Source: an uncultured Acetobacteraceae bacterium
GTDB lineage: Bacteria > Pseudomonadota > Alphaproteobacteria > Acetobacterales > Acetobacteraceae
Reading direction: 5' to 3'
NCBI GenBank assembly: GCA_964247685.1
Contig: CAXTVZ010000001.1
Span: 56,800-120,799 of the forward strand
DNA length: 64,000 bases
Below the pieces are notes generated by a model. The model did not search any database and had not been told where the DNA came from. It worked only from the letters and a program-made list of their open reading frames with translations. Positions 3,181-53,542 of this stretch are shown one piece after another (the first letter of the stretch is position 1; each line of letters begins with the position of its first letter). A program made the position numbers and the translations under genes.

Positions 3181-3204
3181 GCCTGGGGACCAGCCCCCCT
3201 TGGC
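3181..3204 (-). promoter_or_regulatory. leader stem-loop box
   Basis: GCCAAGGGGGGCTGGTCCCCAGGC on coding strand, ends 17 nt before GTG 3163. Confidence 0.6.
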
Positions 3205-3212
3205 GAGTGTTG

Positions 3213-3241
3213 GTGCTACGCGCTTTCCGCGCGCATGGCAA
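3213..3241 (-). promoter_or_regulatory. promoter-like repeat with conserved spacer
   Basis: TTGCCA-tgcgcgcggaaagcgcg-TAGCAC (6+17+6), 8 nt upstream of leader box. Confidence 0.5.
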
Positions 3242-3416
3242 TCAAAGCCTCAGTGCGCGCCGCCCGGTCGATCGCCGCGGCGAGGTCATCCGGCGTGCTG
3301 AGCGTGCCGCTCTGCCACGCGGTCGCAATGCGTCGGCCTGGGCTCACCGGTGGGCTCGGCGCGTCAACGCTGGCGGGTACAAGCTGGGCGGTCTCGGGTG
3401 AAGCCAGGTCGAACAT
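3216..3416 (-). CDS. hypothetical protein
   Basis: 66 aa ORF; leader box 17 nt upstream. Confidence 0.5.
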   Translation of the reverse strand: MFDLASPETAQLVPASVDAPSPPVSPGRRIATAWQSGTLSTPDDLAAAIDRAARTEALIAMRAESA

Positions 3417-3433
3417 GGAAGCCTCGTCGTTGC

Positions 3434-3454
3434 GCCCGGGCTGATCCCCTCGGC
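3434..3454 (-). promoter_or_regulatory. leader stem-loop box
   Basis: GCCGAGGGGATCAGCCCGGGC, ends 17 nt before ATG 3416. Confidence 0.6.
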
Positions 3455-3502
3455 GTTTGCCAGTCGGACGCGCGGGCGAGCCCGCCCGCGCGTAAAGGAA
3501 GC

Positions 3503-3530
3503 GGCAGCCTGCCGGCCGCCGCAGGCCGCC
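3503..3530 (-). terminator. GC hairpin directly after CDS 3531..4277
   Basis: GGCGGCCTGC-N8-GCAGGCTGCC (one mismatch) followed by GCTTCCTTTA on minus strand. Confidence 0.4.
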
Positions 3531-4277
3531 TCACCCATGCGCAAGTCCGTATTTCTCGGCGCAGATCGGGCCGTAGCCCGCTTCGATGGAAGCCTTGTCG
3601 GTCAGCTCGCGCGCGCAAAAGCAGCAGGCCCCGAAGCGCTGGCCGTACGCCTTGGCCGCCGCCTCGGGGTCGGCCGCCAGGCAGGTGAGCGCCCGGCCGA
3701 CGCGCGCGGTAGTCGCCGGGTCGGCGTTGCGCGCCGGCTCGAACCGGCCGTCTGCCAGGATGCGGCCGAACCAGCTGCGATCCTCGAAAGCACGGTCGGC
3801 GCTGCAGACGTTGACGGTGCCTGGCGCGCGGGCGCCCTCGCCGGCGACGGTCAGGCGGAACTGCTGCTCGTCGGCTGCGCACAGCACCTTCGGGTTCTTC
3901 AACGTAGTGCTGGCGCGGCGCATCATGTCGACGATGCTGCCCAGGTTGGCGGTGGTGGTGGGCGCGGGCGTCGCCGGCCCGGCTGACGCGGTGGAAGCCA
4001 TCGCGCGCCGCACGGCGGCCTCCTGGTTGGGCGACAGCGTGCCGTAGCTGTCGAAGCCGACGCACACGTCGCGCAGGAAGTTGCTGCGGCCGGTGTTGGC
4101 GCGCAGCCAGTCGATCAGCGCGCCGCGGGTCTCGTCCTGCGCAAACCATATCGTCGACCGCGCGCTGCCGCCGGTCCGCGCCACTGGCCGAGGCGCCGGC
4201 GCGGGCTGGCCCGCCGGCTGCTGGCGAAACGCCGCAAAGTCGGAGGAGGAGAGGGCCATGTAGCGACCTTTTGCCAT
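3531..4277 (-). CDS. protein with DUF6011-like C-terminal zinc ribbon
   Basis: C-terminal CCFCARELTDKASIEAGYGPICAEKYG; ATG 4277 with AAGGAA upstream; internal start of ORF 3531..4544. Confidence 0.6.
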   Translation of the reverse strand: MAKGRYMALSSSDFAAFRQQPAGQPAPAPRPVARTGGSARSTIWFAQDETRGALIDWLRANTGRSNFLRDVCVGFDSYGTLSPNQEAAVRRAMASTASAGPATPAPTTTANLGSIVDMMRRASTTLKNPKVLCAADEQQFRLTVAGEGARAPGTVNVCSADRAFEDRSWFGRILADGRFEPARNADPATTARVGRALTCLAADPEAAAKAYGQRFGACCFCARELTDKASIEAGYGPICAEKYGLAHG

Positions 4278-4296
4278 GATGCTGTTCCTTCGCAGC

Positions 4297-4318
4297 GCCC
4301 CGGGACGACCCCTTGGGC
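4297..4318 (-). promoter_or_regulatory. leader stem-loop box
   Basis: GCCCAAGGGGTCGTCCCGGGGC, ends 19 nt before ATG 4277. Confidence 0.6.
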
Positions 4319-4327
4319 GTAACAGAA

Positions 4328-4356
4328 TGTTTGCGCGCTTTCCGCGCACAGAGCAA
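4328..4356 (-). promoter_or_regulatory. promoter-like repeat with conserved spacer
   Basis: TTGCTC-tgtgcgcggaaagcgcg-CAAACA, 9 nt upstream of leader box. Confidence 0.5.
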
Positions 4357-4378
4357 GCAGTATCTATGCGCCGAGCAG

Positions 4379-4576
4379 TCAGGCGTCGTCGTCTTTGGCG
4401 GCGAACTCGCCACACCAGTCCGACGCGCTGACGCGCGGCCAGCCGCGCTTGCTCTCGTTCTCCATCTGCACCGGCGGAAAGCGCCGGCAAATGAAGTCGA
4501 GGCTGCCCTTGGCGCCCGGCGTGCGATACTTGCAGTCCAGGCACGCGGGCTCGGCGTCGGCAAACCTCTTGCCCAC
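4379..4576 (-). CDS. small Cys-rich protein
   Basis: 65 aa, CLDC...C...WCGEF; GTG 4576 two nt after upstream stop. Confidence 0.5.
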   Translation of the reverse strand: MGKRFADAEPACLDCKYRTPGAKGSLDFICRRFPPVQMENESKRGWPRVSASDWCGEFAAKDDDA

Positions 4577-4578
4577 GA

Positions 4579-5241
4579 TCAGCCAGCTACGGCTTCCTCG
4601 GTCTCGAAGACCGCAAGCCCGGCAATCACGTCGGCCGCGGCGTCCGCGTCGAACAGCACGAACTCGCAGCCCCTCGTGCGCGCGACCGCAAACACGCCCG
4701 CCAGGTCCGCCGGCACGTCGCCGTAGAAGGACGGCCCGCTGTGCGTCGGCACGGACACGAACCAGCCGCGCGGCATGCCGCCGATGTTGACCACCCGATA
4801 GTCGGGTTCGAGCTCCAGTTGGTTGGCGAGCCAGGCTTGGGTTGCCAGCGACAGGTGATCGGTGGCGACGTCGAGCAGGGTGCGCACGGGGTAGGGCGCG
4901 GCCGCTTCGTCGCGCGTGTCCTGCGCTTGGACACAGATCTCGCCCATGTCGCGCGTGCCGGTGGCGACCTCCGGGTGCTTGGTCAGGATGCAGGCGTAGG
5001 CGCGCTGCTCTTCGGTGCGCTGCCACTCCCGCACGGCTTGCAGCCGCTCGTCTGACCCGGCCGGCAAATCGTCCAGATGCGCCGGGAGACGCCGCGTGCC
5101 GATGCGCCCCATGCGCACGCCGTCGATTGTCTGCTGCGTGCTGTGGTTGCCGCCGAGCATGTCGCCGGTGTGCGGCTCCCACGCCGTGTAGACGACGCAG
5201 CTGGTGCCGATGATCCTGGTGGCGGTGACGATGTTCCACAT
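4579..5241 (-). CDS. hypothetical protein
   Basis: 220 aa ORF, first gene of minus block; promoter-like repeat and leader box upstream. Confidence 0.6.
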   Translation of the reverse strand: MWNIVTATRIIGTSCVVYTAWEPHTGDMLGGNHSTQQTIDGVRMGRIGTRRLPAHLDDLPAGSDERLQAVREWQRTEEQRAYACILTKHPEVATGTRDMGEICVQAQDTRDEAAAPYPVRTLLDVATDHLSLATQAWLANQLELEPDYRVVNIGGMPRGWFVSVPTHSGPSFYGDVPADLAGVFAVARTRGCEFVLFDADAAADVIAGLAVFETEEAVAG

Positions 5242-5260
5242 GGGCGCGGGGCTCCGTTGC

Positions 5261-5281
5261 GCCCGGCATAATCGCCTCGGC
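5261..5281 (-). promoter_or_regulatory. leader stem-loop box (degenerate)
   Basis: GCCGAGGCGATTATGCCGGGC, ends 19 nt before ATG 5241. Confidence 0.45.
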
Positions 5282-5289
5282 GTCTCATT

Positions 5290-5318
5290 CGCTTACGCGC
5301 TTCCCGCGTAGAGAGCAA
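5290..5318 (-). promoter_or_regulatory. promoter-like repeat, fused to palindrome site
   Basis: TTGCTC-tctacgcgggaagcgcg-TAAGCG; -35 is the right arm of CAACAtaaTGTTG. Confidence 0.5.
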
Positions 5319-5328
5319 CATAATGTTG
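5316..5328. promoter_or_regulatory. CAACA-N3-TGTTG palindrome (operator-like)
   Basis: CAACAtaaTGTTG between divergent starts 5241(-) and 5472(+). Confidence 0.55.
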
Positions 5329-5471
5329 CGCCTCTCCCAACCGCTGGCGCAAAAAACGAACGCAGCTCGTTACTTGGTCCGAGCAATCTTGCAATTTCCG
5401 CCCAGTGTTCCACAAGGCAATAGCGCAGCACTTTCAGCACTGAGGCGTCGGCGCGCCGCCTGGAGCACCGT

Positions 5472-6383
5472 ATGTATGCGGCAAGAAGCCCCGTCACCAA
5501 GAGGTCGGGCGTGACGACTGACGCGCCCAAAGACAACAAAAAGTTGGGCCAGTCGCGCCCCGCAAAGCACGGCCTGCGCGCCGATGGTAGGCCGCGCAAG
5601 CGGCCGCGGCCTTACGCTGGCGAGAGCACGCTACCGCCCGATCCGTCCGCTGCGGATGAAGTGCAAGCCGCGTCGCGCGCCCGCTCGTCCGCCGGCGTGT
5701 TCATGGAGACCGAGGTCCGGGCGAGCAGGGTGGTCAAGGCGGAGACGGAGCACGGCCGCTCGGTTCGTCTGCTGGCGGACGACCGCGCCGACCACCGCGT
5801 GCCGTCGATCCGTCGCGAGGTCATCACCGGTGGGCTCGACGCCGACGGAGAGGCAATCACCCTGCGCGCGCCCAGCGTCGAGGACGGAAGCTGGCGAGAC
5901 CCTGACGACACTGTGCCGAACGCCAGCCGCGTGCCGCGCCGGGTGCGCGCCAACCGGCGCGCCAACAACCTGCGCTGGATGCAGAAGCGCGGAGTTGCCC
6001 TGAGCGACGACCACGTGACCGCCGGTGAGCTCTACGAGCAGGACTACGAGACGGCGCACATCGGCAGGTTTCCCGGCGCACCACCGCCGGAAATCCGGGG
6101 CACGCCGGGGCCTGGCGACTATTCGCGGTGCATCGACAAAAGCCGGATGTTCAACGAGGCGGAGGCTGCCGTTGGCCACTTCGGCGCCGACCTGCTGCGC
6201 CACGTCGTGCTCGGCCGCGAGGGATCCGCGCCAGGCGACATCAGCTCGTGGGCGGCCACCAAGCAGGTTGGCGGCAGACAGCTCGACCGCAAGGCGGCCG
6301 TCGGCGTGCTCATCGCCACGCTGGAAATCCTGGTTGGGCACTACGGACGCCGCATCCGCGACAAGCAGAAATCCGAGGCGTAG
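5472..6383 (+). CDS. hypothetical protein, possibly DNA-binding (DUF6456-like, unverified)
   Basis: 303 aa, GGAG 6 nt upstream of ATG, basic N-terminus; RWMQKRGVALSDDHVTAGELYEQDYE and C-terminal LIATLEILVGHYG recall DUF6456-type proteins. Confidence 0.5.
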   Translation: MYAARSPVTKRSGVTTDAPKDNKKLGQSRPAKHGLRADGRPRKRPRPYAGESTLPPDPSAADEVQAASRARSSAGVFMETEVRASRVVKAETEHGRSVRLLADDRADHRVPSIRREVITGGLDADGEAITLRAPSVEDGSWRDPDDTVPNASRVPRRVRANRRANNLRWMQKRGVALSDDHVTAGELYEQDYETAHIGRFPGAPPPEIRGTPGPGDYSRCIDKSRMFNEAEAAVGHFGADLLRHVVLGREGSAPGDISSWAATKQVGGRQLDRKAAVGVLIATLEILVGHYGRRIRDKQKSEA

Positions 6384-6499
6384 CCGGTCTCGCTAAGCGG
6401 CTTCGGTCGTTGCGTGAACTGATTTCTGGCAGGCAGCAACGCGCGCGCTCGCGTATACGCGCGCGAGAGGGGTGCGACTTGACCCGGCTCGCCGTCCAA

Positions 6500-6597
6500 C
6501 GCTTTGTTACGCTGTCGCCCGGCCCGGTGTGCCGGCGGCATGGTCGACGTTTCCTCCCTAAACTTGGCGCGGACCGGATCGGCCCGCGCTTTTTTTT
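6500..6597 (+). ncRNA. candidate sRNA or 3'UTR-derived RNA with anti-SD motif
   Basis: GC hairpin region, single-stranded UUUCCUCCCUAAA (6550-6562), then intrinsic terminator; no convincing ORF. Confidence 0.2.
6567..6597 (+). terminator. rho-independent terminator
   Basis: GCGCGG-accggatcggc-CCGCGC followed by T8 (6590-6597). Confidence 0.7.
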
Positions 6598-6850
6598 GCT
6601 CAGTGCATGCCGCCGCCAGACACGGGCGCGCCCACCGGCACGCCAGCGACACGCGCGGTGTTCCACTTGTGGGCGTAGTGGCCGTCGACCTTGATCGCGC
6701 CGTCCTGAACGCTCGGTCGACCGCCGCGACAACGCCTACGGATCGTATCGCTTCTTTCACCGCCCGGTGGCCGCCCAGCAGGCGTAGGTGCGCCTGACCG
6801 GCAGGCGGCGAGAGACAGCGAGGTATTTTGCGGTTTTCGCAAAGAACTGC

Positions 6851-6879
6851 TTGCAACGTGCGCGGAAAGCGCGTAAATC
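6851..6879 (+). promoter_or_regulatory. promoter-like repeat with conserved spacer
   Basis: TTGCAA-cgtgcgcggaaagcgcg-TAAATC, 8 nt upstream of leader box. Confidence 0.5.
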
Positions 6880-6887
6880 AATCTTAC

Positions 6888-6907
6888 GCCAGGGCGACGT
6901 GCCCGGC
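6888..6907 (+). promoter_or_regulatory. leader stem-loop box
   Basis: GCCAGGGCGACGTGCCCGGC, ends 21 nt before ATG 6929. Confidence 0.55.
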
Positions 6908-6928
6908 GGCAGCGCGGAGGCTCCGGCC

Positions 6929-7156
6929 ATGCAGATCACCTACGGCGACCGCTTCGTAGACGAGTGCAGCCCCGCTGCGGTGCGCGGCCGGTTCTGCTTC
7001 ACGGCGGACGGCACCAAGGCCGCCGGCGGCTTCGACGTCAACATGAAACTCAGCGCCGACCGCGCGGCTGACGCAACCAAAGCCGCAAAGATCGTCGCCA
7101 AGCGCGCCGGCACCGACCAAGTCGTGCTGCACCGCCTGACATCCCCCACCCGCTGA
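6929..7156 (+). CDS. hypothetical protein
   Basis: 75 aa, GGAGG upstream; internal start of ORF 6788..7156. Confidence 0.55.
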   Translation: MQITYGDRFVDECSPAAVRGRFCFTADGTKAAGGFDVNMKLSADRAADATKAAKIVAKRAGTDQVVLHRLTSPTR

Positions 7157-7163
7157 TCAACCC

Positions 7164-7183
7164 GGCAAGGGCACAGCCCGGCC
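7164..7183 (+). promoter_or_regulatory. leader stem-loop box (intercistronic)
   Basis: GGCAAGGGCACAGCCCGGCC, ends 18 nt before ATG 7202; no promoter motif upstream. Confidence 0.55.
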
Positions 7184-7201
7184 GCACCACTGGAGTCGTC
7201 G

Positions 7202-7546
7202 ATGACCTACCAAAGCCCAGTCCAGCTCACGCACGTGATCGCCGCGTTCCAGATGCACCCGACCTTGCACCGGATGGTTGACGCGACCTGCTACTGTTTC
7301 GACAGCGGCCAGCGCTTGTCGGTCTACCTGGCGGACGATGCGGTGTTCGCGGAAGCGGGAACCGGCCTGCTTCCAACCGATGCGGAGGCTGCGTTCATGC
7401 GCGAGGTCGCGGGGCGCACGACATTTCAGCAGCTGCCCGCTCAGCTGCGGCGAGGTAAGCCTGTCGGCCCGCGCGGCCTGGGGGCAATGACGTTTTCTGT
7501 TGCCGCCTCGCCGAAACTGCTTGCTCTGTGCGCGGAAAGCGCGTAG
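7202..7546 (+). CDS. hypothetical protein
   Basis: 114 aa ORF; 3' end reads through the next promoter-like repeat. Confidence 0.55.
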   Translation: MTYQSPVQLTHVIAAFQMHPTLHRMVDATCYCFDSGQRLSVYLADDAVFAEAGTGLLPTDAEAAFMREVAGRTTFQQLPAQLRRGKPVGPRGLGAMTFSVAASPKLLALCAESA

Positions 7547-7549
7547 AAC
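7521..7549 (+). promoter_or_regulatory. promoter-like repeat with conserved spacer
   Basis: TTGCTC-tgtgcgcggaaagcgcg-TAGAAC. Confidence 0.5.
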
Positions 7550-7557
7550 TGAATCAC

Positions 7558-7577
7558 GCCAAGGGAACCGCCCGGGC
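7558..7577 (+). promoter_or_regulatory. leader stem-loop box
   Basis: GCCAAGGGAACCGCCCGGGC, ends 18 nt before ATG 7596. Confidence 0.6.
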
Positions 7578-7595
7578 GTGCCGACGGAGAGACCC

Positions 7596-7937
7596 ATGAT
7601 CGTTCACACCGCCACTCTGACTGCCGAGCAGACCGCCAAGCTGACCCGCCTGGCCAACTACGGCACCCGCTACGAGGCAGCGATCGTGCGCGCCGACGGC
7701 ACCAAGGTGCTGCTCGGCTATCTTCGTCGTCACAGCTTTCTCGGCTTGGCCGCAGGAGTTGACGGCCGCGCCCTTCGTGTAGTCGACGCCCTCGGTGACG
7801 CCGGCGTTCTTGTCCGCCACCTTCGCAAAACCATGCGTGTGGCTTTCGTCACCGAGGCCGGGGCAGTGCTGGGCCACGCGGAATTCACCGGCCGCACCGA
7901 GCGCGACGCGATCCGCGAGGGCGAGTTGGTCAACTGA
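7596..7937 (+). CDS. hypothetical protein
   Basis: 113 aa; GGAGAG upstream; internal start of ORF 7500..7937. Confidence 0.6.
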   Translation: MIVHTATLTAEQTAKLTRLANYGTRYEAAIVRADGTKVLLGYLRRHSFLGLAAGVDGRALRVVDALGDAGVLVRHLRKTMRVAFVTEAGAVLGHAEFTGRTERDAIREGELVN

Positions 7938-7956
7938 TCAAAACCAGGAGGAAGAT

Positions 7957-8223
7957 GTGCAGCAACTCAGTAAAGACGCCCAGAGTGTCGCCGTTTGTTT
8001 CTTCGGCTTCATGCCGAAGGTAGAACTCGTTTTTCACCGACCGCGTATTATTCATCCGCGGATGCGGTCAGCGCTGGACGAACTGACCGAAGCTGGTTTG
8101 TTGACGACCGAAGACGATAAGCGCGGGCCAAAGGCGTGGAAGGCAACGCCTGAGCTAACCGCGCTGGCCAAGACGCTTCCGCGTCCTAGGGAGGAAGACA
8201 GCGTTCCCCTGACAACAAAGTAA
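7957..8223 (+). CDS. hypothetical protein
   Basis: GTG 7957 five nt after AGGAGG; lower-GC patch. Confidence 0.5.
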   Translation: MQQLSKDAQSVAVCFFGFMPKVELVFHRPRIIHPRMRSALDELTEAGLLTTEDDKRGPKAWKATPELTALAKTLPRPREEDSVPLTTK

Positions 8224-8275
8224 CCAGCGAGCACAAGCTTGCCTGCATTTGGCAAGCGGCATGGAGCTTCCAACG

Positions 8276-8494
8276 ATGAGCACCACGACAGCAAGTTACG
8301 ACAAAAGGTTTCTACCCTACGCGGAGGCTGCTCTTGGCGCTTACGCTCGGGCGGTCGGTTGGCACGCCGACGCCGGTCCGGACCAGGCCATCGTGGCGTG
8401 CGTCGCCTCGCTTCTTCATTACGCCGCAGCGAATGGCTGCGAGCCGTCGGACATGATCGAGCGAGCGAAGGAAATGTATGACACCGAGGCCTGA
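8276..8494 (+). CDS. hypothetical protein
   Basis: Start uncertain (ATG 8249, 8261 or 8276); GGAG 9 nt before 8276; begins ATGAGCACC like the 32.8-33.6 kb cassette genes. Confidence 0.45.
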   Translation: MSTTTASYDKRFLPYAEAALGAYARAVGWHADAGPDQAIVACVASLLHYAAANGCEPSDMIERAKEMYDTEA

Positions 8495-8507
8495 CCAGCG
8501 TCATCGC

Positions 8508-8536
8508 TTGCTCGGTGCGCGGAAAACGCGTAAGTC
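8508..8536 (+). promoter_or_regulatory. promoter-like repeat with conserved spacer
   Basis: TTGCTC-ggtgcgcggaaaacgcg-TAAGTC. Confidence 0.5.
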
Positions 8537-8544
8537 AATAACCG

Positions 8545-8564
8545 GCCGAGGGGACGTCCCAGGC
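8545..8564 (+). promoter_or_regulatory. leader stem-loop box
   Basis: GCCGAGGGGACGTCCCAGGC, ends 20 nt before ATG 8585. Confidence 0.6.
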
Positions 8565-8584
8565 CGCACCCAAGGACGAAGCTG

Positions 8585-8755
8585 ATGGCACGAGCCGCCC
8601 CAACCCTGCACGCCGAGTTGCGCAACAGACGACGCACGCCGCAGCCGTTCAACGTGTCGTATCGCCGCGTCGGCGGCCTGCGCCTGCTCAAGCTGGGACG
8701 ACTGACGATCAGCTTTTCCGTCTCGCGTTCGTTCAAGCCCATCAAGGGCACCTAG
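8585..8755 (+). CDS. small basic protein (below ORF-track cutoff)
   Basis: 56 aa MARAAPTLHAELRNRRRTPQPFNVSYRRVGGLRLLKLGRLTISFSV...; high GC3; positioned exactly behind promoter repeat and leader box. Confidence 0.45.
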   Translation: MARAAPTLHAELRNRRRTPQPFNVSYRRVGGLRLLKLGRLTISFSVSRSFKPIKGT

Positions 8756-8770
8756 AGCCAACCGCCACCG

Positions 8771-8791
8771 GCCAAGGGCGCTGTGCCCAGG
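8771..8791 (+). promoter_or_regulatory. leader stem-loop box (intercistronic)
   Basis: GCCAAGGGCGCTGTGCCCAGG, ends 20 nt before ATG 8812. Confidence 0.55.
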
Positions 8792-8811
8792 TCAAGCACC
8801 AGGATGCCGTC

Positions 8812-9195
8812 ATGAACCGCCACCGCTATATCCGCGCCACGCATGAAACCGAGGACAGCGAGACCGGCGCGGTCACCAGCTGCACCGAGACCCGGATCCA
8901 CTACACCTACCTCGCTGGCTGCGCCGCCCAGGTCTATGGGCCGGCCGAGCGCTGCCACCCGGCCGAGGCGGCCGAGGTCGAACTCGACTACGTCGAACGC
9001 GAGCAAGAGGGCAGGTGGGTGCGCCTGGACCTCAGCCGCGCCGAGGCGGCCTCGCCCGAAAGCATGCACGACCACGCCCTGCAGGTGTGGGCGGAGTACT
9101 ACCTCGCCGAGCACACCGACGAGGTGACCGAGCGTGAGGCTGACCTAGCCGCCGAAGCGCGGGAATACGCTGCGGAGTGCCGCGCCGACCGATAG
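8812..9195 (+). CDS. hypothetical acidic protein
   Basis: 127 aa ORF. Confidence 0.55.
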   Translation: MNRHRYIRATHETEDSETGAVTSCTETRIHYTYLAGCAAQVYGPAERCHPAEAAEVELDYVEREQEGRWVRLDLSRAEAASPESMHDHALQVWAEYYLAEHTDEVTEREADLAAEAREYAAECRADR

Positions 9196-9211
9196 CCGAC
9201 CAGCCAGCACG

Positions 9212-9231
9212 GCCAAGGGATCGTCCCGGGC
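9212..9231 (+). promoter_or_regulatory. leader stem-loop box (intercistronic)
   Basis: GCCAAGGGATCGTCCCGGGC, ends 19 nt before ATG 9251. Confidence 0.6.
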
Positions 9232-9250
9232 CGATCGACAGGAGCCTGCA

Positions 9251-9457
9251 ATGCAAAAACGACGCTACATCCCCGCTTGGCGCACGCCCCAAGCCCACAA
9301 GCCCACAGCCCGACACGTGCTACTCCGGGCCGCGGCGTTCGCCTGGCGTGCCTATCGCAGCAGCCGCGACGCTCAGGAGTGGGCGGCAATGCTAGGCCTA
9401 ATCGGCCTGCTGCCGCTGACCACCTTCGCCTGCCTCTACCTGTTCGGCTCGCCATGA
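9251..9457 (+). CDS. small protein with C-terminal hydrophobic helix
   Basis: 68 aa, AGGAG 6 nt upstream; MLGLIGLLPLTTFACLYLF. Confidence 0.5.
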   Translation: MQKRRYIPAWRTPQAHKPTARHVLLRAAAFAWRAYRSSRDAQEWAAMLGLIGLLPLTTFACLYLFGSP

Positions 9458-9956: not shown

Positions 9957-9965
9957 TGAGTCAGC

Positions 9966-9986
9966 GCCAAGGGGTGTGTCCCGGGC
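9966..9986 (+). promoter_or_regulatory. leader stem-loop box
   Basis: GCCAAGGGGTGTGTCCCGGGC, ends 18 nt before ATG 10005. Confidence 0.6.
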
Positions 9987-10004
9987 GTCTCGAAGGAGCC
10001 AGCC

Positions 10005-10394: not shown

Positions 10395-10430
10395 CCCCAA
10401 GAAGGCACGCCGGCGTAGTCTCCCGGCCGG

Positions 10431-10450
10431 GCCGAGGGACGCACCCGGCC
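10431..10450 (+). promoter_or_regulatory. leader stem-loop box
   Basis: GCCGAGGGACGCACCCGGCC, ends 18 nt before TTG 10469. Confidence 0.55.
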
Positions 10451-39080: not shown

Positions 39081-39112
39081 CGTATAAAAAGCCGTCGGGT
39101 AATTCTCCTCTT

Positions 39113-39133
39113 GCCGAGGGCGAGGTGTCCCGG
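39113..39133 (+). promoter_or_regulatory. leader stem-loop box
   Basis: GCCGAGGGCGAGGTGTCCCGG, ends 24 nt before ATG 39158. Confidence 0.5.
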
Positions 39134-39157
39134 TGCAGCAACAGGGACGACACCCGC

Positions 39158-40978: not shown

Positions 40979-41051
40979 CCATACTCCTGTGCTCGGAGTA
41001 ATCGTTGCGCACGGCGAGGATGAGTTCCGGCCGCAGCAACAGGGGGATGCA

Positions 41052-44267: not shown

Positions 44268-44273
44268 AACGCC

Positions 44274-44295
44274 GCCAGGGGCGCCGTGCCCGGGC
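44274..44295 (+). promoter_or_regulatory. leader stem-loop box
   Basis: GCCAGGGGCGCCGTGCCCGGGC, ends 18 nt before GTG 44314. Confidence 0.55.
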
Positions 44296-44313
44296 GAAGC
44301 CGAGGACCTGCCC

Positions 44314-47300: not shown

Positions 47301-49374
47301 CAAGCGGTTGGAGCGGCTGAAAGAGGGCTTCGAGGAACGCCTTGACCGGCTGTCCTCGCGCAAGGACGACGTGGTCACCATTGCCGAAATCGGCGTGGAT
47401 CAGATCGTCGTCGACGAGGCGCAGGAGTTCCGCAAGCTCTCGTTCGCAACCAACATGGGCACGCTGCGCGGCATCGATCCGGACGGCTCGCAGCGCGCTT
47501 GGGACCTCTACGTCAAGGTCAAGTTCATCGCCCAGTCGAACCCGACGCGGCCGCTGATCATGGCGTCCGGCACGCCTATCACGAACACCATGGGCGAGCT
47601 GTTCACCCTCATGCGCTTCATGCACGAGGTAGGGCTGATCGACCGGCTGGTGCACCAGTTCGACGCCTGGGCGTCGACCTTCGGCGAGACGCGCACCGAT
47701 CTCGAGCTGCAGCCATCGGGCCTCTACAAGCCGGCCACCAGGTTCAGCCAGTTCGTCAATGTGGCAGAGCTGATCGCGATGTTCCGCGCGGTGGCCGACG
47801 TCGTGCTGAAAGACGACCTGCGCGGCTACATGAAGCTGCCGCGCATCAAAGGCGGCAAGCGGCAAATCCTGACGTTCAAGCCGACGCCCGCCTTCCGCGC
47901 CTACCAGAAGGAACTCGCGCACCGCATCGCCCTGATCGAGCAGCGCAAGGGGATGCCGAAAAAAGGCCAGGACATCATCCTGTCGGTCATCGGCGACGGC
48001 CGGCACGCGGCGCTGGACATGCGCTTCACCGGCCCGGACGCCGAGAACGAGCCCGAAAACAAGCTGAACGGGCTCATCGCGAACGCCTTTAAAATTTGGC
48101 AGGAGACCAGCGGCTACCGCTACACAAACCCGGCAACCGGGGAAGCCTATCCGCTGCCCGGTGCCACGCAGATGATCTTTTCCGACCTCGGCACTCTGAA
48201 CGCCGTGGCAACGCGTGGCTTCTCCGCCTACGCGTGGATCCGCACCGAGCTGATCCGGCTCGGCGTGCCGGCGGAGCAGATCGCCATCATCCACCACTAC
48301 AAGCGCGCGGCCGAGAAGCTGGCGCTTTTTGCCGACCTTAACAGCGGTCGAAAGCGCTTCGTCATCGGTTCGAGCGAAAAGATGGGCACCGGCGTCAACG
48401 CGCAGCAACGTCTGATCGCGATGCACCACCTTGACGTTCCCTGGCTGCCGTCCTGGATCGAACAGCGGGAAGGGCGCATCGACCGGCAGGGCAACCAGAA
48501 CGACGAAATCGGCCTGTTTGCCTATGCGACGACTGGCAGCATGGACGCGCCAATGTGGCAGTTCAACGAGAGAAAGGCGCGTTTCATTGCCGCGGCGCTG
48601 TCGGGCGACCGCTCCATCCGCCGGCTCGACGACGTCGGCGACACCGTCGACCAGTTTGCTTTTGCCAAGGCGCTATCGAGCGGCGACGCGCGCCTGATGC
48701 AGAAGGCCGGGCTCGAAGCTGAGCTTGCCCGCCTGCATCGGCTGAAGGACTCGCACTTCGACGACCAATACAACGTGCGTCAGCGCGTCGACGGCGCGCG
48801 CGGCACGATCGTGCGCTGTCAAAAGCGCATTCCGCTGCTGGAGATGGACCTCGACAATCGCGTGGACACCCGCGCGGACCTGTTCCAGATGACGGTTGAC
48901 GGCAAGGCCTACACCGAGCGCAAGGCGGCCGGCGCCGCCTTGCTGGCGTTCGCGCGCGCCCGCAAAGCCGGCATGCAGGACGGCGAGTGGACTATCGCGC
49001 AGCTGGGCGGGTTCGCCGTGAAGCTGGACAGCGAAGTCCTTGTCGAGCGGTCGCGCGGCAAGGAGGTCGCCCGGTCGTGGTTCGCCCACCTTTGGATCAT
49101 GTTTAGCGCCGAGCCGACGAGGGTATCGGCGGACGTGGCGGCCCTAGAGCCGCTCGGCTTGGTCGCGCGGCTGGAGAACGCCGTGCGTGCTCTCGACTAC
49201 GACCTGACAACGACGCAGACGCGCCTGGCGGACGCCGAGAAGGACCTCCGGGAGTTCGAGGCGATGCTGCAGGACACCTTCGAGTTTCAGGACGAACTCG
49301 ATGCCAAAACCGACGAGCTGTTGACCCTCAACGAGTCCCTGGCGCGCAACACGGAAGCCCCTGTTTTGCTCTAG
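44314..49374 (+). CDS. N6-adenine DNA methyltransferase fused to SNF2-family helicase (DarB-like giant protein)
   Basis: LEPGCGTGLFLA, VIGNPPFSD; AVGAGKTFLM, VVDEAQEFRK, MASGTPITNTMGELF, QREGRIDRQGN; 1686 aa. Confidence 0.9.
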   Translation: MQQLNFFEVQAPRVSAATPPAENFSLLDSAEQGRGLAKTWKERAADNIAAIRLAQRIEAEFRPATLAECAQLIRFVGFGASDLANSLFPTKAGAFGQGWEQLGQALHAVAGREVTALARATQYAHFTPEYIVTAMWDAVRRFGFDGGRVLEPGCGTGLFLALAPKAIAQASVFVGIERDPITARIARLLHPLAHIETADFGQRHLPRCAEPFDLVIGNPPFSDRTVTADDAEGAGKLGLSLHEFFILRAVRMLRPGGLGAFVTSRYLMDKGSDLARAVLAADAELLGAIRLPRGSMRAAAGTDVVVDLLFLRRRDKRGAHPLSKPWVALGSVACTGLATSCTVNSFFAETPEAVLGNHAFVSSQHGPAYTCAPEPGLDLPGELAAAAERLASEQAFWPADAVLDADEADPVPDVNVRSVADGGTLREGSYFVDTDRLWQIVDGRAVAVAVKAGRGTEGIFQSHAAIIRGLIPIRDAVRDVLRAQVRNSASWAAEAARLRGAYDAFVKKHGPINHTVLSTTTVDDVVRVTDPETGEVLSETLEQRERTTARRPNLAPFLDDPDVWLVSSIESYDVDTGIAKPGAVFTERVIRQPTEPVIASAADALAVVLNEVGRVDIPRIGGLIFKPPAEVIRELGAAIFEDPETEQWVTADAYLSGAVRGKLKTAQRAAAEAGARYQRNVEALEAVQPTDLKPSEITARLGAPWVPVPVVERFILEVMRVRTTVHHTPAVASWTVEQPPFKGNAASTSEWGTQRRHAGDLLEDALNASIPRIYDVERDSSGKEIRTFNAAATEAAKEKLEKIKRAFEAWVWKEPSRADRLVRIYNDDYNNLVPRHFDGAHLQLPDASGIIEMRPHQKRGVWRVITAGSTYLAHAVGAGKTFLMAAALMEQKRLGLVSKPMMVVPGHCLAQAAREFLMLYPTARILVADETNFVKEKRQRFIARAATGNWDCIILTHSAFKFIPAPGAFERSMINEQLANYEELLLSVDENDRVGRKRLERLKEGFEERLDRLSSRKDDVVTIAEIGVDQIVVDEAQEFRKLSFATNMGTLRGIDPDGSQRAWDLYVKVKFIAQSNPTRPLIMASGTPITNTMGELFTLMRFMHEVGLIDRLVHQFDAWASTFGETRTDLELQPSGLYKPATRFSQFVNVAELIAMFRAVADVVLKDDLRGYMKLPRIKGGKRQILTFKPTPAFRAYQKELAHRIALIEQRKGMPKKGQDIILSVIGDGRHAALDMRFTGPDAENEPENKLNGLIANAFKIWQETSGYRYTNPATGEAYPLPGATQMIFSDLGTLNAVATRGFSAYAWIRTELIRLGVPAEQIAIIHHYKRAAEKLALFADLNSGRKRFVIGSSEKMGTGVNAQQRLIAMHHLDVPWLPSWIEQREGRIDRQGNQNDEIGLFAYATTGSMDAPMWQFNERKARFIAAALSGDRSIRRLDDVGDTVDQFAFAKALSSGDARLMQKAGLEAELARLHRLKDSHFDDQYNVRQRVDGARGTIVRCQKRIPLLEMDLDNRVDTRADLFQMTVDGKAYTERKAAGAALLAFARARKAGMQDGEWTIAQLGGFAVKLDSEVLVERSRGKEVARSWFAHLWIMFSAEPTRVSADVAALEPLGLVARLENAVRALDYDLTTTQTRLADAEKDLREFEAMLQDTFEFQDELDAKTDELLTLNESLARNTEAPVLL

Positions 49375-49379
49375 TGACA

Positions 49380-49392
49380 CAACAAAATGTTG
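49380..49392. promoter_or_regulatory. CAACA-N3-TGTTG palindrome
   Basis: gacaCAACAaaaTGTTGcg; TTGCGT-N17-CATATT with spacer CTCGCCC-ggt-GGGCGAG. Confidence 0.55.
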
Positions 49393-49461
49393 CGTCTCGC
49401 CCGGTGGGCGAGCATATTATCGACACACCGAGGCAACATCGCCAGGTGCAGCGCGGAGCGA

Positions 49462-51802: not shown

Positions 51803-52071
51803 GAGCGGTCCAGGCGCTTAGTGCGCAAGCGGCGCGGTGCCAGCCTGGCAGGCCGGCCGTGCTCACGGCCGATCAGGTCGCCGTCGGCGACATGCTGATG
51901 CGCGACGGCTACCCGGTCGAGGTGCGGCAGAAAATGTTGAGCCCGGACGGCCAGGTTTGCACGCTCGCCTGGGGCGAGGCGCGGGGCGAAATGATCATCG
52001 TGCTAACGGCCACGCCGCTCAGCGTGGTGGTTGGCGTCTGTTACGCGGGGGCTGTCTGGCATGAGCGTTGA
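51799..52071 (+). CDS. hypothetical protein
   Basis: GTGA overlap. Confidence 0.45.
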   Translation: MRAVQALSAQAARCQPGRPAVLTADQVAVGDMLMRDGYPVEVRQKMLSPDGQVCTLAWGEARGEMIIVLTATPLSVVVGVCYAGAVWHER

Positions 52072-52606
52072 AGACCTGCTGCCGACGGTGCCGGTGAGGT
52101 TCGACCTAGCGGCGGCCGAGCACGCGGCCGACGCCTGGGGCTGCAACTGCGGACCTGGTGCGCTTGCGGCGATGACTGGGCTGACGCTTGACGAGGTGCG
52201 CCCTTGTCTCGGCGACTTCGAGGTGAAGCGCTACACGAACCCCACCCTGATGTTCGAGACGCTGCGGCGGCTCGGGGTGTCCTACACCGTAGAGCGTCGC
52301 CTGCCGCTTGACTGGCCGCGGCACGGCTTGGTCCGGATTCAATGGGGCGGCCCATGGATGGCCGACGGCGTGCCTATCGGCGCGCGCTATCGGCAGACGC
52401 ACTGGGTGGGCGCCCGTCACACTCGCGGTCGGGCGGAGGTGTTCGACATCAACTGCATCAACGTCGGCGGCTGGGTGCCGATGGACACCTGGACGGCCGT
52501 GGTAGTGCCCTGGCTGCTACGCGAAGCCGTGCCGAGAGCCGACGGCTCGTTCTCGCTAACGCACGTCGTCGAGGTGAGCACCGCGCTGGCCGGTCGCGAG
52601 CATTGA
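52061..52606 (+). CDS. papain-fold (C39-like) cysteine peptidase-like protein
   Basis: AWGCNCGPGALAAMTG candidate Cys, QTHWVGA candidate His. Confidence 0.45.
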   Translation: MSVEDLLPTVPVRFDLAAAEHAADAWGCNCGPGALAAMTGLTLDEVRPCLGDFEVKRYTNPTLMFETLRRLGVSYTVERRLPLDWPRHGLVRIQWGGPWMADGVPIGARYRQTHWVGARHTRGRAEVFDINCINVGGWVPMDTWTAVVVPWLLREAVPRADGSFSLTHVVEVSTALAGREH

Positions 52607-52668
52607 GCGTGTCCGCTGGCTTAGGTATGCCTTGCGCCGGCACGGGTGCATCTGCACAACTGGATACC

Positions 52669-53448
52669 ATGGCAGATCAACCGCAAGGCGACAGGGCCAG
52701 CGGGCGCGACATATCGATGAGTTCGACGCGCCTTCGGGAAATCCTGCACAATCTGAGCTGGTCGCAGAACGAGCTGTCCGTCGTGCTCGACTTTCGCGAC
52801 ACCGCGTCGATCCGGGCGATGGCGCGCGGCAAGAAGCGAGTCTGGCCCGTCATCGCCGCGTGGCTTGAACGACTGGACGCGTTCCAGGCGGCAAGCGGCT
52901 TCCCGGTCGGTATCCTCTGGTGGAGCGAAGAGTACCCGGAGGCTTTCGCACGCGCGGCCGACACGGCGCCAGACGAGGGCGTGAGGGCTTGGCTGGCCAG
53001 CGTCGTCGCGTTCCACGCCGCGCACCGGTGGCCGTCGGAGGACTGGAAGGTGGACGAGGAGGCGATGGCCGACGGCAGCCAGGCCGTGGCGGATCTTCGC
53101 ACGCTGGGCTTGCGCCTCTACGGCGACATCGGGCGGGCGCTGCGGCTCGACATGCGCTACGCGAAAGCCTGGCAGCGGCGTCCGCGCAACATGGTCAGCG
53201 AGGTGCTAGACTGGCTCAACGAGCTCGCCGAATACAAGCGGCACACGGGCTTCCCGATGGAGCTGCTAGTCCTGAACTGGAATCTGTCTGCCACGTTCGC
53301 CGGCGCGTTGTCGGCTGGAACTGCAGTGCCGGCTCAAGCGGGCGCCTGGATTGGCGATGCCCTCGAGTTCTACCAACGCAACAACGTGCCGGTCGGCTTC
53401 GAGCCCGAGCAGGACGCTGAAGAAGGGTTTCAAGCAACCGACGCGTAG
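52669..53448 (+). CDS. hypothetical protein with internal duplication
   Basis: Two similar modules (...VIAAWLERLDAFQAASGFPVGILWW / ...VLDWLNELAEYKRHTGFPMELLVLNW). Confidence 0.5.
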   Translation: MADQPQGDRASGRDISMSSTRLREILHNLSWSQNELSVVLDFRDTASIRAMARGKKRVWPVIAAWLERLDAFQAASGFPVGILWWSEEYPEAFARAADTAPDEGVRAWLASVVAFHAAHRWPSEDWKVDEEAMADGSQAVADLRTLGLRLYGDIGRALRLDMRYAKAWQRRPRNMVSEVLDWLNELAEYKRHTGFPMELLVLNWNLSATFAGALSAGTAVPAQAGAWIGDALEFYQRNNVPVGFEPEQDAEEGFQATDA

Positions 53449-53474
53449 CCAAGCGGGTGCTGACCGGCCGCTGC

Positions 53475-53487
53475 CAACAAAATGTTG
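53475..53487. promoter_or_regulatory. CAACA-N3-TGTTG palindrome
   Basis: CAACAaaaTGTTG; TTGCGA-N17-TAACGC. Confidence 0.55.
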
Positions 53488-53520
53488 CGACCGCTTGCGG
53501 ATGCGAGTAACGCTCACTTA

Positions 53521-53542
53521 GCCGAGGGGGCCGTCCCCGGGC
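53521..53542 (+). promoter_or_regulatory. leader stem-loop box
   Basis: GCCGAGGGGGCCGTCCCCGGGC, ends 17 nt before ATG 53560. Confidence 0.6.

Follow-up and report, generated by a model that had tools for sequence, protein, structure and literature searches.

A bulged GC leader hairpin stands before the ribosome-binding sites of at least 18 genes of an alphaproteobacterial phage-like element

The Aca1 5'-UTR motif is an inverted repeat of ~20 nt that directly follows the predicted transcription start site, ends ~20 nt before the start codon and features covariation and a conserved build, namely a 3-bp lower stem, no more than 2 unpaired bases and an upper stem of 3 bp (Feussner et al., NAR 2026, PMC13551039). 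Aca1 binds this RNA motif in vitro, and Aca RNA motifs are also located between operon genes (PMC13551039). Reporter assays with Aca1 revealed no translational silencing. In T4-type phages, numerous orphan early genes of small size are preceded by PeSL cassettes (Arbiol et al. 2010, PMC2839356; Comeau et al. 2014, PMC4122927); the position of the stem-loops in these cassettes varies, and the stem-loops function as terminators or attenuators and have been discussed as recombination linkers. Cluster K mycobacteriophages feature the SAS and ESAS repeats, the function of which is still unproven (Pope et al. 2011, PMC3203893).

The window analyzed here, a 64-kb stretch that represents about half of a 126-kb contig and to which all hairpin counts refer, features a hairpin with an Aca1-like build, a different sequence and a far higher copy number. 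This bulged GC leader hairpin is a real RNA-level signal at no fewer than 18 genes of an alphaproteobacterial phage-like element. It is ~22 bases in size, is located immediately 5' of the ribosome-binding site and follows the consensus N-GCC-RA-GGN-loop-NCC-R-GGC-N', with a 4-bp outer stem, a 2x1 purine internal loop and an inner stem of 3–4 bp. An initial annotation had listed 15 sites, all of which are present as described, except that some of the coordinates clipped the 3' arm or the outermost pair and are refined here (8770-8793, 39112-39135 and 3180-3205). The strict pattern GCC-RA-GGG-N3-9-CCC-R-GGC occurs 7 times in the window, whereas 200 dinucleotide shuffles gave 0.015 matches on average and never more than 1. 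A covariance model, R1, was trained on 11 of the 15 originally listed sites and scores its own training copies at 26.6–30 bits. R1 also recovers two copies outside the training set, 4297(-) at 22.5 bits and 6887(+) at 20.4 bits. Its best 15 hits are all intergenic, in sense orientation and followed by an SD and a start codon 13–20 nt downstream, in agreement with the coding-strand, pre-start placement proposed in the annotation; hits below 16 bits are for the most part intragenic. In ~350 kb of control DNA no R1 hit exceeds 20.7 bits, the limit being 20.7 bits in 75 kb of alphaproteobacterial plasmid DNA and 20.0 bits in 273 kb of TerL-related viral contigs and Bcep22. Three extra hairpins were found beyond the 15 (41012-41033, 49426-49448 and 52681-52703). 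The only relative found is L123, a 118-kb metagenomic contig with a DarB homologue that is 70% identical, and it features hairpins at 5 orthologous starts and 1 further copy.

Two promoter classes are located ahead of the hairpins. The class A promoter features an inverted repeat within the -35/-10 spacer, as in the promoter-operator at 6846..6881 (+), CTTGCA-N-GTGCGCGGAAAGCGCG-TAAATC. Class A core sites are located at 3217-3233(-), 4332-4348(-), 5294-5310(-), 6859-6875, 7529-7545, 8516-8532 and 9936-9952 (7 matches, 0.8 expected), and the -10-like hexamer is followed by the hairpin start after 8–9 nt. The class B promoter is a palindromic motif, exemplified by ACAACAAAATGTTGC at 49379..49393 (+), with 9 matches compared to 0.07 expected; it is followed by a hairpin at 10381, 39067, about 40964, 49379 and 53474 and occurs without one at 24625 and 36909. 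The promoter-like -10 elements of the initial annotation are roughly right by virtue of these repeated motifs, however, a scan of the window with the E. coli consensus found no promoter. From the end of the extended hairpin, the SD core is 4–8 nt and the start codon 13–23 nt downstream. The copies at 7164, 8771 and 9212 are indeed intercistronic, start 7–16 nt past a stop codon and lack a promoter motif upstream. These promoter-less copies and the fixed SD and start spacing support the earlier view that the element tracks translation starts and not promoters.

On the minus strand, the copy at 3180..3205 (CGCC-AA-GGGG-GGCTGGT-CCCC-A-GGCG; R1 26.6 bits) follows a class A promoter, and GTG 3163 is 16 nt downstream. 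The copy at 3433..3455 (R1 29.4 bits) is located after a terminator-like hairpin, has no recognizable promoter 5' and precedes ATG 3416 of a 66-aa ORF. Class A promoters are also found before 4296..4319 (R1 22.5 bits), which features a 5-bp outer stem and precedes ATG 4277 of a DUF6011 protein of 248 aa, and before 5260..5282 (28.1 bits), which features a compensatory GGC/GCC inner stem and precedes ATG 5241 of a DUF5983 protein of 220 aa. The other copies are on the plus strand. Those after a class A promoter are 6887..6908, a 1x0 bulge variant (R1 20.4 bits; ATG 6929), 7557..7578 (R1 29.3 bits; ATG 7596), 8544..8565, in which the outermost pair is flipped to G-C (28.4 bits; ATG 8585 of an Arg-rich 56-aa ORF), and 9965..9987 (R1 30.0 bits; ATG 10005). 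The intercistronic copies are 7163..7184 (29.9 bits), with a compensatory CGGC/GCCG outer stem, 7 nt past stop 7156 and before ATG 7202, 8770..8793 (26.9 bits), with an outer-stem G-U pair, ~15 nt past stop 8755 and before ATG 8812, and 9211..9232 (R1 29.3 bits), ~16 nt past stop 9195 and before ATG 9251. Two weak variants with a 2x0 internal loop, listed earlier as 10431 and 39113, share the class B motif upstream with other copies. The former, 10430..10450 (12.8 bits), precedes TTG 10466 or 10469 of a Rieske-like protein; the latter, 39112..39135, also features G-U pairs, is absent among the R1 matches listed and precedes ATG 39158 (ortholog L123 5591-5614). A class B promoter is also found before 53520..53543 (R1 28.9 bits; ATG 53560; ortholog L123 17969-17992) and before the new copy at 49426..49448 (CACC-GA-GGC-AACATC-GCC-A-GGTG; 16.2 bits; ortholog L123 15147-15169), which is followed by ATG 49465 of a small ORF and then by a methyltransferase gene. 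The new copy at 41012..41033 (CGGC-GA-GGA-TGAGT-TCC-G-GCCG; R1 17.0 bits; ortholog L123 8473-8493) has a class B-like promoter and precedes GTG 41052 of a glycosyltransferase-like product. The copy at 44273..44296 (29.5 bits; ortholog L123 9990-10013) is the leader of a DarB-like methylase/helicase gene that starts at GTG 44314. The weakest of the new copies, 52681..52703 (CCGC-AA-GGC-GACAGG-GCC-A-GCGG; 13.7 bits), precedes ATG 52717 with no clear SD. The downstream products include a DarB-like anti-restriction protein, a methyltransferase and DUF5983 and DUF6011 proteins, which are typical of counter-defence or leading regions.

Alignment of 19 copies supports the earlier proposal that the element acts at the RNA level. 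Compensatory changes on both sides are found at 5 of the 8 pairs, and 94.7% of the alignment cells are paired compared to at most 54.6% for slid structures. The covariation score was reached in none of 500 shuffles, and RNAalifold independently predicted the identical fold. G-U pairs are present, with no G-T wobble positions outside the sense strand, and in 17 of 18 copies the sense hairpin surpasses its antisense counterpart in stability, with 1 tie. Between the window and L123 the hairpins are 78% identical and the flanks 54–62%. One orthologous pair differs by a compensatory change (CACC/GGTG in the window, CGCC/GGCG in L123, at 49426), and the sixth L123 hairpin, which has a class A promoter upstream, features a wholly changed outer stem, GTCC/GGAC. 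The terminal loop varies freely in sequence, and the arm spacing varies by up to ~6 bp with loop length. The pairs G17-C31 and G18-C30 are found in 19 of 19 copies and C14-G33 in 18 of 19, and A occupies the second position of the 5' internal loop in at least 90% of copies. Compensation maintains the stems, but the purine loop and the two adjoining G-C pairs are kept as sequence, which is suggestive of recognition by a specific trans-acting factor; stability alone would not demand this invariant core.

Contrary to the initial annotation, phage leaders of this shape are on record: the Aca1 RNA motif has been described in nearly identical terms, and PeSL and ESAS are further analogues. Aca1 systems likewise feature a DNA-operator inverted repeat inside the promoter and control counter-defence genes. 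The JBD30 instance of the Aca1 motif, UGCC-A-GCC-ACAAC-GGC-GA-GGCG, is located 8 nt past the -10 and 18 nt before the ATG, and it equals the window hairpin in its 22-nt size, NGCC/GGCN' lower stem, 5-nt loop and three unpaired purines. However, the internal loop is mirrored (2x1 in the window, 1x2 in Aca1), the upper stem is GGG/CCC instead of GCC/GGC and, unlike in Aca1, the loop-adjoining pairs are invariant, the outer stem covaries and two promoter classes are used. The window features at least 18 copies in 64 kb and has an alphaproteobacterial host, whereas the Aca1 motif occurs 1–3 times per genome in Pseudomonadaceae, Moraxellaceae and Burkholderiaceae. A covariance model of the Aca1 motif scored none of the 18 window hairpins and R1 did not score the JBD30 hairpin; by this measure the window hairpin falls outside the Aca1 motif in sequence. 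SAS/ESAS are, like the window hairpin, oriented repeats at translation starts of some non-structural genes, and ESAS, an inverted repeat with imperfect arms and a spacer that varies, is located immediately 5' of the SD-containing SAS. ESAS arms are 17 bp compared to 8–9 nt in the window, the sequence and the host phylum are unrelated, and ESAS is not described in terms of RNA covariation. The 13-bp SAS consensus GGGATAGGAGCCC is absent from the window (1 match with 2 mismatches, 1.2 expected).

The candidate roles named in the initial annotation, an operator for an RNA-binding regulator, a 5' stabilizer and a standby site, are reasonable. Tentatively, and with a little less than even confidence, the hairpin is read as an RNA leader operator that would serve a putative phage-encoded regulator and would itself also cap the mRNA 5' end. 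In early and counter-defence genes the hairpin would be a cis-acting part of the translation-initiation region. Where a promoter precedes, transcription is predicted to start 0–2 nt before the hairpin, so that the hairpin would be the extreme 5' end of the mRNA; within operons it is placed between the stop codon and the next SD. The RNA element would be ~20–45 nt 5' of the start codon, at about the supposed 30S contact zone of structured leaders. By analogy to the Aca1/Aca2 systems, a phage-encoded regulator may bind the hairpin and may jointly adjust the translation and/or the mRNA lifetime of every cistron that bears one; we infer both this binding and the direction in which regulation would act. 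The 5'-terminal hairpin may also shield the transcript against 5'-end-dependent decay. This reading is disfavored by the Aca1 reporters, which showed no silencing of translation, and by the number of sites, at least 18 per half genome with two promoter classes compared to 1–3 reported for Aca systems. A tblastn search of the window and L123 found no Aca1 homologue. Among ~75 predicted proteins scanned with Pfam, the sole candidates for nucleic acid binding are an RHH_4 protein, a resolvase and a DUF3268 zinc-finger protein, none of which adjoins a hairpin. The gene product of 10005-10328 appeared HTH-like by eye and was rejected, the prediction being a two-helix hairpin.

It is possible, if rather unlikely, that the hairpin is a passive 5' stabilizer and ribosome-binding-site insulator with no specific partner. 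A 5'-terminal stem-loop would block 5'-end-dependent RNase E/RppH, in operons after upstream processing, and a local fold of the upstream sequence would keep the SD accessible in a 66% GC transcript. The hairpin is predicted to begin no more than 2 nt from the transcript start, its folding energy is -9 to -14 kcal/mol, the minimum-energy fold retains it with the SD largely unpaired in roughly two-thirds of leaders, and the loop sequence is unconstrained, all of which is consistent with such a role; the folding energies and the largely free SD fit the operator reading as well. Protection by 5'-terminal stem-loops is established in Gram-negative bacteria, and the one in the ompA leader is reportedly protective, a result credited to Emory et al. 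in 1992. The leaders of E. coli ompA and T7 phi10 feature a stable hairpin a few nt from the 5' end, before the SD. To our knowledge, each of these is confined to a single gene and they have no sequence motif in common, whereas the window reuses one sequence-defined motif at 18 or more genes, internal cistrons included. Additionally, a stabilizer needs neither a destabilizing purine internal loop of fixed size nor invariant GG/CC adjoining it, and both are kept in the 19 aligned copies and in orthologues with far more divergent flanks. The intercistronic copies would also require upstream cleavage, for which no signal is visible.

A PeSL-like mobile cassette, in which the unit of promoter, hairpin and SD would mainly be a homology patch that helps to shuffle small orphan early genes and the hairpin would attenuate read-through as in T4-type phages, is decidedly unlikely. 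In the early region (3–10.5 kb) a run of small orphan ORFs features a promoter-hairpin-SD unit before each, and none of the early genes is shared with L123 or any database entry. The PeSL build is similar: a sigma-70-type early promoter and a G-run/C-run GC stem-loop (GGGG...CCCC) are combined with the next gene's SD and start. Some PeSL stem-loops are located between the -35 and -10, comparable to the class A inverted repeat, and some subclasses feature theirs downstream of the -10 (PMC2839356). However, PeSL has no defined internal loop, reported covariation or fixed SD distance, and a recombination role predicts neither compensatory stem changes nor fixed SD spacing. The window hairpin is also seen where there is no promoter and after a second promoter class unrelated to the first, is kept at orthologous, non-shuffled L123 positions and has no U-tract, and a terminator scan picked none of the copies. 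A double-stranded DNA operator at +1 to +24, at which a dimeric repressor would block promoter escape, is very improbable: many operators are common for phage repressors and the repeat is directly downstream of promoters at 12–13 sites, but the half-sites are asymmetric (2 and 1 unpaired bases) and variably spaced, CACC/GGTG, CGGC/GCCG and GTCC/GGAC keep pairing and not a fixed recognition sequence, the wobbles are confined to the sense strand, and all copies have one orientation relative to the gene, 3 or 4 of them without a promoter. Chance GC-rich palindromes or a generic host REP-like repeat are scarcely credible, since the GC content, the 27 loose regex matches in the window, many of them intragenic, and the 6.7 matches per shuffle of the relaxed descriptor are outweighed by the strict-pattern excess, the low scores in control DNA, the merely single, scattered matches per contig in an IMG/VR scan and the sense, pre-start position of all top hits.

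The leader box is a bulged GC stem-loop located 5' of the Shine-Dalgarno (SD) sequence, and all 15 sites listed in the initial annotation are present in the window. With one extra base read on each side, the shared form is N-GCC-RA-GGN-loop-NCC-R-GGC-N', in which 4 bp make up the outer stem and 3-4 bp the inner stem, closed by a 3-9-nt loop whose sequence is not conserved. The hairpins are 21-26 nt in size with arms of 8-9 nt, and their internal loop is asymmetric (two 5' purines opposite one 3' purine). The 3' unpaired base is absent from sites 10431 and 39113 (sites are named by their first base), site 6888 has a single bulged A, and site 4297 has a 5-bp outer stem. The outer stems include CGCC/GGCG, GGCC/GGCC, CGGC/GCCG, CACC/GGTG, CCGC/GCGG, and AGCC/GGCT, and the inner stems include GGG/CCC, GGC/GCC, GGA/TCC, and GGG/TCC. 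A covariance model of the hairpin built from 11 window copies revealed further candidate copies at 41012 (17.0 bits), 49426 (16.2 bits), and 52681 (13.7 bits). The match of this model at 11139-11165 (15.7 bits) was not counted as a copy because its 3' side is irregular and it is accompanied by neither an SD sequence nor a start codon.

The proposal that the copies keep their pairing potential is borne out by an alignment of the 11 copies, in which 96.6% of the cells pair and 4 of the 8 pairs change on both sides. A larger alignment of 19 copies, 14 from the window and 5 from a relative, L123 (the readable 25-kb stretch of a metagenomic contig), used artificial AT anchors solely to force the alignment ends. 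In this alignment 94.7% of the cells are paired versus at most 54.6% when the 3' partners are slid, and double changes are found in 5 of 8 pairs (22 cells), with the caveat that the weaker copies were picked partly via a model that rewards pairing. The weaker copies are independently supported by their placement behind promoters, before start codons, and at orthologous sites. None of 500 shuffles reached the covariation score of the 19-copy alignment, and RNAalifold independently predicted the same fold, ((((..((((...)))).)))). Covariation is concentrated in the outer stem and in inner pairs three and four. The two G-C pairs beside the internal loop are invariant (19/19), as are the closing C-G pair of the outer stem (18/19) and the A of the loop (at least 90%). 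Window positions 27-60 kb are syntenic with L123, whose DarB homologue, P0003, is 70% identical to that of the window and is encoded on a 118-kb contig, NODE_106 of ENA ERZ22921139 (118,131 bp). The window model places hairpins in L123 before the orthologues of five hairpin-led genes. Over these five orthologous pairs the identity is 78% in the hairpin, 62% in the 50 nt upstream, and 54% in the 18 nt downstream, and where the hairpins differ, the changes are mainly loop changes or compensatory ones. L123 has one more copy, its sixth, behind a promoter of class A (one of two repeated promoter-like units described below), with a wholly changed outer stem (GTCC/GGAC) and AC in place of RA in the internal loop.

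The hairpin is separated from the SD core by 4-8 nt and from the start codon by 13-23 nt, mostly 16-20, and directly 3' of the hairpins is GCA/CAG..., followed by the SD sequence, not the run of U that comes after the GC hairpin of an intrinsic terminator. Fold energies are -9 to -14 kcal/mol, and in roughly two-thirds of the leaders the minimum-energy fold keeps the hairpin with the SD largely unpaired. The class A unit, CTTGC-N-GTGCGCGGAAAGCGCG-TAAnnc, is located 5' of seven copies (7 matches versus 0.8 expected), all within 3.2-10 kb and before small ORFs without Pfam hits. The -35/-10 spacer of the seven class A promoters features an inverted repeat, TGCGCGGAAAGCGCGTA, at 3217-3233, 4332-4348, and 5294-5310 on the minus strand and at 6859-6875, 7529-7545, 8516-8532, and 9936-9952 on the plus strand; it occurs once in L123 (21103-21119, minus strand). 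The repeat, which the relative also retains, probably serves an early-gene repressor as its DNA operator. Two unrelated ORFs, 3216-3416 (-) and 7202-7546 (+), each extend across a class A promoter, whose -10 TAG is their stop codon, and they have near-identical C-termini (...ALIAMRAESA and ...LLALCAESA, respectively) because the promoter is embedded in the 3' end of the upstream gene.

The class B unit is located 5' of five copies and features a palindrome, ACAACAAAATGTTGC, with 9 matches versus 0.07 expected. Its palindromic motif, (A)CAACAAAATGTTGC, occupies the -35 position and is found on the plus strand of the window at 5315, 10381, 24625, 36909, 39067, ~40964, 49379, and 53474; L123 has 11 matches versus 0.95 expected, among them 4761, 5547, 9476, 15100, and 17923. 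The palindrome is likely the binding site of a dimeric activator or repressor. The class B sites at 24625 and 36909 have no leader hairpin; at 36909-37010 (+) a longer hairpin of another kind, CGCGAGA...TCTCGCG, stands behind the promoter instead. A third, related promoter precedes the DarB-like gene. The -10-like hexamer is located 8-9 nt from the hairpin in class A (n=7) and ~5-9 nt in class B, the transcription start sites being predicted. A scan with the E. coli promoter consensus found none in this region; the -10 hexamers (TAAATC, TAGAAC, and similar) fit the alphaproteobacterial consensus. The promoter assignment is therefore inferred. Copies 7164, 8771, and 9212 begin 7-16 nt past a stop codon and have no promoter motif, in agreement with their earlier description as intercistronic. 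Copy 3434 is preceded by a terminator-like hairpin. Two strong GC hairpins stand back to back at 3460-3530 (-), past the stop codon of the DUF6011 gene, and one of them has a T-rich tail; this pair is probably a terminator between the DUF6011 gene and the next hairpin-led ORF.

The reading we favour, at slightly under an even chance, is that the hairpin would be an RNA leader operator read by a specific factor and that the same hairpin would form the protected 5' end of the predicted transcript. It is favoured because pairing is kept by compensation and the internal loop and its adjoining pairs are kept as sequence, in paralogues and in orthologues. The main rival is a factor-independent stabiliser and insulator, which accounts for the position and stability of the hairpin but leaves the conserved internal loop unaccounted for; we regard it as possible, though on the unlikely side. 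Further analogues are the PeSL cassettes of T4-type phages and the ESAS of Cluster K mycobacteriophages. PeSL cassettes function in attenuation and recombination (PMC2839356). As in these cassettes, a sigma-70-like early promoter, a stem-loop, and an SD sequence with start codon are repeated in the window before orphan early genes. The PeSL stem-loop is a terminator or attenuator of transcription. No window copy is followed by a U-tract, and a terminator scan, whose sites are elsewhere, picks none of them. A PeSL-like shuffling cassette fits less well and is improbable. The ESAS are paired imperfect 17-bp inverted repeats with a 4-13-bp spacer, located 5' of the SAS, in contrast to the 8-9-nt arms and 3-9-nt loops of the window hairpin. 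The 13-bp SAS consensus of Cluster K, GGGATAGGAGCCC, which stands at the start codon, has one match with 2 mismatches in the window versus 1.22 expected, and this match is not at a hairpin.

An operator in duplex DNA also fits less well; we consider it very improbable. The copies contain G-U pairs, and folding favours the sense over the antisense strand in 17 of 18 of them and neither strand in the remaining one, which fits a sense-strand RNA. A chance pattern or a host repeat is less probable still: looser versions of the pattern are common in this GC-rich DNA (the window GC content is 66%), but the strict pattern occurs 7 times in the window versus a mean of 0.015 (maximum 1) in 200 dinucleotide-preserving shuffles, a count that upholds the initial annotation.

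Because the looser patterns are common, the covariance model was relied on, run unfiltered over the whole window. The 11 training copies score 26.6-30 bits and two untrained copies score 22.5 and 20.4 bits. Each of the best 15 matches is intergenic, lies on the coding strand, and has an SD-like sequence behind it, with the start codon 13-20 nt away; matches below 16 bits are mostly intragenic. The control DNA, in total ~350 kb that is related or of similar GC content, contains nothing above 20.7 bits: the maximum was 20.7 bits in 75 kb of compositionally similar alphaproteobacterial plasmid DNA, with no match at a start codon, and 20.0 bits in 273 kb of viral contigs related by their large terminase (TerL) together with Bcep22. 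In IMG/VR, the hairpin pattern alone gave single scattered matches only, the class B promoter and hairpin patterns together gave none, and the class A promoter motif matched one unrelated contig that is without hairpins. The combined class B and hairpin patterns gave chance-like single matches only in GTDB genomes and JGI metagenomes. A scan of the whole window with 4227 Rfam covariance models at the gathering threshold returned suhB/mmgR only, and an E-value scan of 2900-10700 returned no match at any hairpin. The hairpin finding is real and well delimited.

It had been stated that no phage leader element of this shape is described. The Aca1 RNA motif overturns this statement and is the closest in the literature (PMC13551039). 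The motif is a ~20-nt inverted repeat directly 3' of the transcription start site that ends ~20 nt before the acr start codon, and it features a conserved 3-bp lower stem, up to 2 unpaired bases, and a covarying 3-bp upper stem (PMC13551039). Aca1 binds the motif RNA in vitro, the promoter features an inverted-repeat DNA operator, and RNA motifs lie between the genes of operons as well (PMC13551039). In six Pseudomonas phages the motif reads UGCC-A-GCC-ACAAC-GGC-GA-GGCG, with a -10 element TAATCT 8 nt upstream (in phage JBD30) and an ATG 18 nt downstream. The window hairpin is of the same size as the Aca1 motif, shares its lower stem, loop length, and count of unpaired purines, and keeps the same two distances; its internal loop is mirrored and its upper stem is different. 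Like the motif, it is a ~20-nt repeat past a predicted start site that ends ~20 nt before the start codon, with a comparable layout of stems and unpaired bases, covariation, and an inverted-repeat operator in the promoter; the class A operator repeat and the Aca1 site, GGCAC-N3-GTGCC, have unrelated sequences. None of the 18 hairpins was matched at E up to 10 by a covariance model of the Aca1 motif (six instances, from the Pseudomonadaceae cluster only), and the window model gave no match on the JBD30 hairpin. The top match of the Aca1 model in the window, 35012-35037 (-), has no start codon behind it and was taken as chance. A tblastn search with JBD30 Aca1 gave best E values of 0.87 in the window, which covers half of the 126-kb contig, and 0.05 in L123, and no HTH protein was found by Pfam among the early ORFs. 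The window hairpin is built like an Aca-type RNA motif and perhaps works like one; its membership of the family cannot be demonstrated because the two models do not cross-match and no Aca1 homologue was found in the window or in L123.

A more far-reaching proposal, which we put forward tentatively and judge unlikely as a whole, is that one dedicated phage-encoded RNA-binding regulator co-ordinately controls at least 18 cistrons, including internal operon cistrons and the DarB-like anti-restriction gene, through the hairpin as RNA operator. Such a regulon would be post-transcriptional and genome-wide, comparable in scale to that of T4 RegA; recognition would be structure-specific, as in the Aca type, with a motif unrelated in sequence to known ones. 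Its setting would be a lineage of alphaproteobacterial phage-like elements, roughly 120 kb in size, that has not been described before. The gene product of 10005-10328 was rejected as the regulator; AlphaFold gives a two-helix hairpin rather than an HTH, and there is no sequence match in the PDB. Two small early ORFs encode proteins that could be nucleic-acid binders, both without a Pfam hit: 4379-4576 (-), a 65-aa Cys-rich protein (CxxC...C...C) similar in size to phage Mu Com, and 8585-8755 (+), a 56-aa protein with an RNRRR stretch. Further candidate binders of the hairpin are an RHH_4 protein at 29251-29499 and a DUF3268 protein at 39823-40338.

RNA control by leader hairpins in phage counter-defence operons was recognised only recently, with Aca2 in 2024 and Aca1 in 2026, and so far at one to three sites per genome. 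New here is a single sequence-defined hairpin at at least 18 genes, behind two promoter classes and inside operons, that is conserved in a diverged relative. It is a variant within a kind of phage regulatory RNA that was recognised only recently, and it stands out by its copy number, intra-operon use, and lineage; its function is putative. If a single factor reads the hairpin, phage post-transcriptional regulons can far exceed their known size. The finding would also offer a way into the start-associated repeats (ESAS, PeSL) that are as yet unexplained in other phages. With its compact 22 nt and fixed SD spacing, the hairpin is additionally a ready-made expression-control part for high-GC alphaproteobacteria.

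The source contig is 125,943 bp, and near-identity DNA searches of phages and plasmids found no near relative. The window encodes a large terminase (61786-63294), a tail-fibre-like protein, methyltransferases, NADAR and DUF1643 proteins, two serine recombinases, many orphan ORFs, and a DarB-like methylase/helicase of 1686 aa (44314-49374, plus strand) that is ~39% identical to those of Bcep22-like phages. Bcep22-like phages were rejected as relatives, the DarB-like protein being the only common gene; none of the predicted proteins had a tblastn match in the first 50 kb of Bcep22. Hairpins are absent from the TerL relatives in IMG/VR, whose identity is at most 54%, and a GTDB genome scan for DarB homologues found no relative. 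Besides P0003, the closest DarB homologues (55-59% identity) are encoded on alphaproteobacterial plasmids (Roseomonas, Methylocapsa, Methylosinus, Bradyrhizobium). Four of these proteins (P0006, P0033, P0008, and P0050; 57-59% identity) were rejected as marking relatives since they sit in plasmid leading regions with ArdC, ParB, and SSB, and their loci served as negative controls; four DarB-homologue loci (L124, L211-L213) are such ArdC-ParB-SSB leading regions. This suggests that counter-defence genes are exchanged between plasmids and this phage-like lineage. The nearest DarB homologues (Roseomonas, Methylocapsa, and similar genera) and an sRNA of the mmgR/suhB family point to an alphaproteobacterial host.

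A lower-GC island at ~29200-35500 (56-61% versus ~67%) has a poor coding signal and is probably an inserted mobile element, because it carries an RHH_4 protein (29251-29499) and a complete serine resolvase with HTH_7 (31642-32256). Accessory genes typical of phage-host conflict are located at 19955-20431 (+), 22724-23239 (-), 55003-55605 (+), and 58085-59239 (+), and encode a NADAR domain, an RNA-ligase-like fragment, DUF1643, and an ABC-ATPase-like protein. The last of these has 55-63% identity with proteins that occur sporadically in phages of Pseudomonas, Porphyromonas, Burkholderia, and Gordonia. The mmgR-like sRNA was rejected as a partner of the leaders, because its seed pairs with hairpin leaders no more strongly than with the remaining translation-initiation regions (p = 0.12). 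It is located at 6510-6604 (+) and matches Rfam suhB/mmgR (RF00519) with 48.3 bits versus a gathering score of 41. This copy features the conserved UUUCCUCCCUAAA loop and a U-tract terminator, with TTGACC-N17-CTTTGT upstream, and a phage-borne copy of this alphaproteobacterial anti-SD-type sRNA is unusual.
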